The notes under the pieces were generated by a model. It was not told the origin of the DNA. It saw nothing but the letters and a program-made list of their open reading frames with translations, and did no database searches. From UHGV virus genome UHGV-0285855: 18,234 nt of DNA; one strand, written 5' to 3'. Positions 16,801 through 16,989 of the stretch are shown here, in pieces. The first letter of the stretch is position 1. Each line of letters starts with the position of its first letter. The DNA comes from a virus. The position numbers were made by a program, and so were the translations under genes.

Positions 16801-16989
16801 ATGTATCGAAACATACGGTGCCGACACTGCAATAAGCTACTGGCACGGGCCAGTTTCAGTTATCTGGAAGTAAAATGTCCGCGCTGTAAAACCCTCAATC
16901 AAATCACATCTCAGAGCGCCACAGAGCACCCCACATACACAAGGAAATCCTGCCGTGGGGAACAAGAAACATTACTTTCAGTCAGATAA
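16801..16989 (+). CDS. com: Com-like zinc-finger translational regulator
   Basis: 62 aa; Cys at positions 7, 10, 26, 29 (CxxC-15-CxxC); AGGAGG at 16785-16790; same length and Cys spacing as phage Mu Com; 3' end overlaps the downstream modification gene as com overlaps mom in Mu. Confidence 0.75.
   Translation: MYRNIRCRHCNKLLARASFSYLEVKCPRCKTLNQITSQSATEHPTYTRKSCRGEQETLLSVR
16929..16960 (+). promoter_or_regulatory. Stem-loop sequestering the methyltransferase start codon (candidate Com-responsive translation-inhibition structure)
   Basis: CCCCAC (16929-16934) pairs with GTGGGG (16955-16960); the 20-nt loop contains AGGA (16942-16945); GTG 16955-16957 is the only plausible start upstream of methyltransferase motif I. 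Confidence 0.4.

Follow-up and report, generated by a model that had tools for sequence, protein, structure and literature searches.

The right end of the stretch of viral DNA analysed here (UHGV virus genome UHGV-0285855, 18,234 nucleotides; from here on the window, with all features on the plus strand unless stated otherwise) raises a question of gene expression: a gene for a C5 cytosine DNA methyltransferase begins inside the 3′ end of com, at a GTG codon that is part of a predicted RNA stem. How would ribosomes gain access to such a start codon? In phage Mu the stem of the translation-inhibition structure (TIS) includes the GUG of Mom, and in the accepted model Com protein binds the mRNA and is proposed to melt the TIS (PMC6483171). 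We propose, with a probability of about 0.78, that the window carries the com operon from the right end of a Mu-like E. coli prophage in which a C5 methyltransferase has replaced mom, while the entire Mu-type translational control module has been kept.

The hairpin over the methyltransferase start

The sequence CCCCAC (16929–16934), the 5′ arm of the hairpin, is the exact reverse complement of GTGGGG (16955–16960), the 3′ arm, from which it is separated by a loop of 20 nt (ATACACAAGGAAATCCTGCC, 16935–16954). The GTG at 16955–16957 is the start codon of the methyltransferase; together with the next three bases it makes up the 3′ arm, and the entire hairpin (16929–16960) falls within the com reading frame (16801–16989). 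The 6-bp stem is present in both the minimum-free-energy and the centroid folds in contexts of 40, 57 and 91 nt, and its 5′ arm is invariant among relatives save for the outer base. The initial annotation had described this GC-rich stem, with the GTG at 16955 in its 3′ arm inside com, and sequence, folds and ORF coordinates bear it out on both points.

The loop contains the purine run AAGGAAA (16941–16947), in which the Shine-Dalgarno sequence AAGGA (16941–16945) lies 9 nt upstream of the GTG. The annotation had the ribosome-binding site embedded in the structure as well. Its location in the loop stands, whereas its sequestration is doubtful. The paired probability predicted for the Shine-Dalgarno sequence of the window is 0.46, and the AGG/CCU mini-helix that would sequester it was discarded because it is not conserved, the CCU being UUU in a 79%-identical relative.

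Folding energy was rejected as a criterion for the hairpin. The z-scores (−1.1 to −1.7) are not significant, and 10 to 26 of 200 shuffles fold as well as the window hairpin. Perfect 6-bp stems with at least five G-C pairs and loops of 3–25 nt occur 34 times in the window, as compared with 26 ± 6 times in dinucleotide shuffles, and only 0.9% of the window bases fall in the 3′ arm of any such stem. The experimentally studied TIS of Mu folds equally weakly (−12.1 kcal/mol, z = −1.6), and because this validated structure scores the same, folding energy is uninformative here; it is conservation and homology that make the hairpin significant. The accessibility of the initiation region also failed to discriminate the methyltransferase from the 18 other gene starts in the window, at 5 of which the start codon is predicted to be paired, too.

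Rfam covariance models run over 16600–17100 gave two hits at chance level (E about 0.7–0.8), both far below the gathering scores and neither overlapping the hairpin. A role of the stem as intrinsic terminator or promoter was dismissed, as the site lacks a U-tract and gave no hits.

The methyltransferase and its start codon

The gene at 16955–18007 encodes a protein of 350 amino acids that matches the C5 cytosine DNA methyltransferase family of Pfam (PF00145) with an E-value of 1.6e-42 over profile positions 5–323 of 324. Motif I (VCSGIE) is found at residue 19, motif IV (PCQAFS) at 87, motif VI (ENV) at 135, motif VIII (QARRR) at 196 and motif X (GNSMP) at 328. Judged from these motifs the gene product is an intact C5 DNA methyltransferase, for which m5C-forming activity is predicted.

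The gene overlaps the end of com by 35 nt and is read in the +1 frame relative to com. This frame is open from 16874, and GTG 16955 is the sole in-frame ATG, GTG or TTG before motif I; the only near-cognate codons are ATC at 16898 and ATT at 17021, the latter inside motif I. PGAP, on a 99.7%-identical E. coli genome, chose the same GTG and the same two CDS boundaries. All methyltransferase homologs linked to com start with MGN, followed by about 15 variable residues and then by YGSVCSGIEAA. These first three residues are encoded by GTG GGG AAC, i.e., by the 3′ arm plus one codon. Behind com the enzyme is kept at 68–99% identity in Escherichia, Salmonella and Citrobacter, always with this start. 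Homologs that are not linked to com begin 5–12 residues before YGSVCSGIEAA with an ordinary ATG. The MGN pattern is expected if the cargo (the gene behind com) is swapped while the initiation module stays fixed, and it therefore supports a start at GTG 16955. The earlier proposal that, with no in-frame ATG upstream of motif I, the GTG serves as start codon is thus sustained by the lack of any other canonical start, by PGAP and by the homologs.

The com gene and a candidate Com-binding site

The com gene (16801–16989; PGAP calls the same CDS) encodes Com, a small zinc-ribbon protein of 62 amino acids of the CxxC...CxxC type, which is presumed to be an RNA-binding translational activator. It matches Pfam Zn_ribbon_Com (PF10122) with 6e-13 and is, in an alignment, 43% identical to Mu Com, with all four cysteines conserved. 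In the literature Com is an RNA-binding translational activator, whose disordered C-terminal segment is not required for binding to RNA (PMC6483171); the name given by PGAP to the product of the window com (annotation of L002 / L165) is "Com family DNA-binding transcriptional regulator."

Selection of RNA ligands (SELEX) has yielded the bipartite Com consensus GAGNNCC(N)2-3GAGNNCC, and the CC(N)2-3GAG to which Com binds in Mu is part of a hairpin immediately upstream of the TIS (PMC6483171). The SELEX-derived motif GAGNNCCNNNGAGNNCC is found once in the 18-kb window, as compared with 0.02 occurrences expected, and this one match (16914–16930) is GAGCGCCACAGAGCACC, a bipartite candidate Com-binding site whose last 2 nt belong to the 5′ arm of the hairpin. 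Its core, CC-ACA-GAG, is at 16919–16926, and the site aligns with GAAUGCCUGCGAGCAUCC of Mu. For the mini-hairpin that would present the site to Com, the window can form two G-C pairs plus a C.A mismatch; a variant from a close relative (L014) has a perfect 4-bp stem, GUGC/GCAC.

Upstream of com, a search for a sigma-70 consensus promoter found none, which fits an activator-dependent late promoter. About 45–65 nt upstream of the com ATG there is a 9-bp inverted repeat, AATCGATCG-N7-CGATCGATT (16733–16757), with two GATC sites (16737 and 16750); L001, a com-mom relative, has an identical repeat. In Mu the 220 nt upstream of com contain four GATC sites, and the GATC repeat of the window may indicate control of the Dam/OxyR type known from the mom promoter of Mu. 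An out-of-frame ATG (16793), which opens an ORF for 26 amino acids (16793–16873), is closer to the AGGAGG at 16785–16790 than is the com ATG at 16801.

Constraint on the RNA among relatives

Is the element conserved as RNA or merely as coding sequence? In 40 distinct com genes of the clade all 25 conserved codons of the zinc ribbon vary synonymously, whereas the synonymous sites of Ala GCC, Glu GAG (Com motif), Pro CCC (5′ arm; 40 of 40) and Gly GGG (3′ arm) are invariant. The Arg codon AGG of the Shine-Dalgarno sequence is likewise invariant (36/36), and the His codon, CAC or CAT, covaries perfectly with the G or A that ends the 3′ arm.

An RNAalifold consensus of 19 distinct enterobacterial junctions recovered the 6-bp stem, in which every cell (100%) is paired; five of the pairs are invariant and one is compensatory (CG in 15, UA in 4). 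The loops vary in sequence and in length, from 11 to 20 nt, while the purine run GGA/GAGG is kept. The covariation is a single compensatory pair, probably the outcome of one evolutionary event, and lends support without being decisive. Since com and the cargo both constrain the coding sequence of the 3′ arm, this could alone explain why the 3′ arm is invariant. The 5′ arm and the Com motif are located outside the overlap of the two frames, and coding constraint can therefore not explain why they are synonymously invariant.

The cassette and the exchange of its cargo

Megablast against complete E. coli genomes matched 235 records, 10 of which cover com and the methyltransferase. Among the partial matches listed only 16668–16969 of the window was aligned, with 97–98% identity. 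This segment is a regulatory cassette composed of the upstream region, com, the Com site, the hairpin and the first three to four codons of the cargo. In the relatives examined (L001 and L008–L033 from IMG/VR) the cargo behind com is Mom (PF25680), which is annotated from the same GTG. Homology between the window and these relatives stops about 10 nt past the GTG, where the window reads GTGGGGAACA|AGAAACATT... and the mom relative GTGGGGAACA|GAAAACAAG..., and resumes at 18071–18171, the last ~100 bp of the prophage. There the window is 93–94% identical to prophages that carry mom or a 79%-identical methyltransferase (L001, L170), whereas 16970–18070 is unrelated. Since the right ends are alike and the sequence before them is not, the cargo slot is sharply bounded by the hairpin on one side and by the transposon end on the other. 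The homology to the chromosome of E. coli AST198 ends at 18171.

The same breakpoint, about 10 nt past the GTG, is found in two com lineages. In the second one (L034–L041 and L085, the latter from Citrobacter), whose Com is about 71% identical, a 68%-identical C5 methyltransferase or Mom follows an identical hairpin, with divergence after GTGGGGAACAA. In phage Chuche, in L042–L073 and in L086 from Salmonella the same CCCCAC...GTGGGG hairpin precedes yet another cargo, an N6_N4 methyltransferase (PF01555). In this group (L004 1630–1640, phage Chuche; L043–L073) the loop contains an in-frame ATG that precedes the GTG by 6 nt and follows GAGGAG by only 2 nt; GenBank starts the gene at this ATG, and the true start is ambiguous.

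From these boundaries we derive a broader proposal, for which we see an even chance: com, the Com site, the hairpin and the first three to four codons (GTGGGGAACA) would form a portable lock that permits expression only late, and recombination at the two boundaries would repeatedly have swapped the unrelated Mom, C5 and N6/N4 enzymes behind com genes that are almost the same, more distant com genes carrying D12 enzymes. For a C5 cargo in E. coli the lock would be essential, as leaky m5C formation would lead to self-restriction of the McrBC type.

Farther upstream, window 12016–15734 looks like a G-segment-like invertible tail-fibre region. A Gin-like recombinase ORF (13028–13600) adjoins the gene for a protein of 682 amino acids (13686–15734) with SASA esterase and DUF6645 domains, and the same region contains an ORF on the minus strand (12016–12537). 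In AST198, a related strain, the equivalent position has minus-strand genes whose annotation is that of fragments of tail-fibre-assembly and tail proteins.

Com-cargo loci beyond the enterobacteria

For a survey of breadth, one genome per species was scanned with a Com profile. This revealed com genes across Proteobacteria and beyond, and those downstream ORFs that could be classified are usually DNA-modification genes and overlap com at its 3′ end. Most of them encode D12 N6-adenine methyltransferases, others N6_N4 methyltransferases, Mom and distant C5 enzymes (L099, L102). In 28 of 33 diverse junctions CC(N)2-3GAG is present at most 60 nt upstream of the presumed start of the cargo, mostly at 23–37 nt. 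The pairing probability of the start codon in the 33 junctions is 0.73 vs. 0.46 in shuffles (Wilcoxon p = 6.5e-4), in a test that is limited by the choice of starts and by the relatedness of the loci.

Some lineages have another hairpin, which pairs the Shine-Dalgarno sequence instead of the start codon. Thus, in com-D12 junctions of Acinetobacter (L075–L077, L103, L135, L138) a stem of 7–8 bp, UUACCUG/CAGGUAA, pairs the Shine-Dalgarno sequence and not the ATG, and in four of them (L075–L077, L138) a Com-type mini-hairpin, ACGC-CCAGA-GCGU, is located inside the loop. Methylophaga thiooxydans DMS010 has 13 identical or near-identical loci with com and D12 on twelve scaffolds (L101, L108, L111–L113, L115, L117–L122), which represent either many copies of a Mu-like element or redundancy of the assembly.

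Proposed mechanism and alternatives

If the locus works as proposed for Mu, the late mRNA of com and the methyltransferase would carry a hairpin that keeps 30S subunits off GTG 16955. Com, made from the same mRNA, would bind to the CC(N)3GAG site (16914–16930) adjoining the hairpin; bound Com would destabilise the hairpin and thereby expose the start signals, and the methyltransferase would be made only late in lytic growth. DNA containing m5C is a target of McrBC-type restriction. Tight control may be required if the lysogen is to escape damage from untimely cytosine methylation, e.g., via restriction of this type, and the role of the methyltransferase would, like that of Mom, be to protect progeny DNA from restriction. 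Since the hairpin is located inside com, its melting by com-translating ribosomes is plausible as an extra or alternative route.

The main rival explanation makes this route the only one: ribosomes translating com would melt the hairpin and thus couple synthesis of the methyltransferase to that of Com in cis, Com protein not being needed. It draws on the position of the stem wholly within com and on the near-universal overlap in this family between the start of the cargo and the 3′ end of com. It leaves unexplained why a SELEX-type Com motif that is invariant at synonymous sites is found exactly beside the stem, and it departs from the accepted model for Mu, in which Com protein binds the mRNA (PMC6483171). 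Coupling could contribute alongside Com; on its own we consider it unlikely. Lower still is our estimate for a stem that is incidental, conserved through protein coding (EHPT and RGE in Com, MGN in the cargo), with the methyltransferase translated constitutively from the GTG. The folding energy that is not significantly better than that of shuffles, the commonness of GC-rich 6-bp stems in the window and the reading of the 3′ arm in two frames would all be compatible with an incidental stem, but the 5′ arm and the Com motif are synonymously invariant outside the overlap, whereas the 25 zinc-ribbon codons all vary, and there is the compensatory change. [quoted passage not shown]

That the methyltransferase starts elsewhere, at a near-cognate codon or as a Com fusion generated by a +1 frameshift, or that the gene is a silent remnant, we regard as very improbable. 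A GTG is a weaker start than an ATG, and the methyltransferase frame, +1 relative to com, is open already from 16874; however, upstream of motif I the GTG is the only canonical start, we noted no frameshift signal, the catalytic motifs are intact without exception, and behind com the gene is conserved at 68–99% identity in three genera, always with MGN. The preferred reading remains a Mu-type module, inherited as a whole, with the methyltransferase swapped in behind it, as indicated by the match of hairpin, Com motif and cassette to that module.

Implications

The Com/TIS switch of Mu is not confined to mom; its RNA element, unchanged and conserved even at synonymous sites, also precedes C5 and other DNA-modification genes. 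For prophage methyltransferases which methylome studies may miss, it provides a GTG start and a rationale of expression, presumably silent in the lysogen and on late in lytic growth. The recognition of RNA by Com is an unsolved problem, for which the loci offer natural variants, namely 19 distinct hairpins with loops of 11–20 nt and a match to the SELEX motif that is better than that of Mu. The locus also illustrates how transposable phages exchange cargo in a modular fashion at defined boundaries.

Comparison with known systems

The closest homologs of the methyltransferase that are not linked to com are encoded in lambdoid prophages, where they sit between the genes for antiterminator Q and holin (L166, L167; 2501–3535). 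Such stand-alone C5 enzymes are 68–70% identical to that of the window and share motif I, YGSVCSGIEAA, but they start with ATG (MTS...) 12 residues before motif I and have neither com nor the hairpin.

An N6-adenine methyltransferase gene follows com in FluMu (hin1523), in Pnm1 (nma1821), at the hia5 locus of H. aegyptius and in Pseudomonas phage B3; Com-type regulation has been proposed for these loci, with possible Com sites at hin1523 (Drozdz et al. 2012, PMC3299994). As in the window, the position of mom behind a com homolog is taken by a DNA methyltransferase. These loci differ in that their cargos methylate adenine, in that some of them (Haemophilus) do not overlap com and in their leader structures, which are unlike the hairpin of both Mu and the window. 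A literature search for com together with cytosine methyltransferase found no paper on a C5 methyltransferase behind com in Mu-like phages.

Close to the window, too, are the com-mom prophages of E. coli (e.g., NCCP 13905, L001), which have in common with it the GTG, the hairpin, the Com site and residues 1–55 of com. The sequence from about 16970 to 18070 is replaced, with mom there and the C5 methyltransferase in the window, and the C-terminal tail of Com differs because it is encoded in the overlap.

In Mu itself the TIS is UCCCAC-GGAGAAACAUU-GUGGGA, the 3′ arm of which includes the GUG of mom (AF083977; PMC6483171). The 3′ end of Mu com reads ...GAAUGCCUGCGAGCAUCCCACGGAGAAACAUUGUGGGAAAAG..., the mom CDS is annotated from the GUG of GUGGGA, and the ribosome-binding site GGAG is in the loop (AF083977). 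Both systems have a four-cysteine Com zinc ribbon, a cargo ORF overlapping the 3′ end of com, a 6-bp hairpin whose 3′ arm contains the GUG and whose loop contains the Shine-Dalgarno sequence, a CC(N)3GAG Com motif that adjoins this hairpin on the 5′ side and extends into its 5′ arm, and a position at the right end of a Mu-like prophage. They differ in the cargo, which is a C5 methyltransferase (PF00145) in the window and Mom (PF25680), an enzyme of adenine methylcarbamoylation, in Mu; in the loop, 20 nt vs. 11 nt; in the stem presenting the Com site, which is degenerate in the window (2 bp plus a mismatch) and has 4 bp in Mu (AUGC/GCAU); and in the Com motif, which in the window fits the SELEX consensus better than does Mu's own site. 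Five of the six stem pairs are identical, and the outer pair has changed from U-A in Mu to C-G in the window, which is compensatory. The likeness to the Com-relieved structure on mom mRNA that the initial annotation had noted is upheld by this matching architecture. Its further claim, that the sequence is different and the locus an independent example of the mechanism, has to be given up in view of the five identical pairs, the conserved Com motif and the cassette shared with mom prophages. On the evidence of these alignments the window hairpin is homologous to the TIS of Mu com-mom, inherited from the com-mom module and not convergent. The C5 methyltransferase is thus a new class of cargo for a known Mu-type module, the mechanism of which is itself not new.
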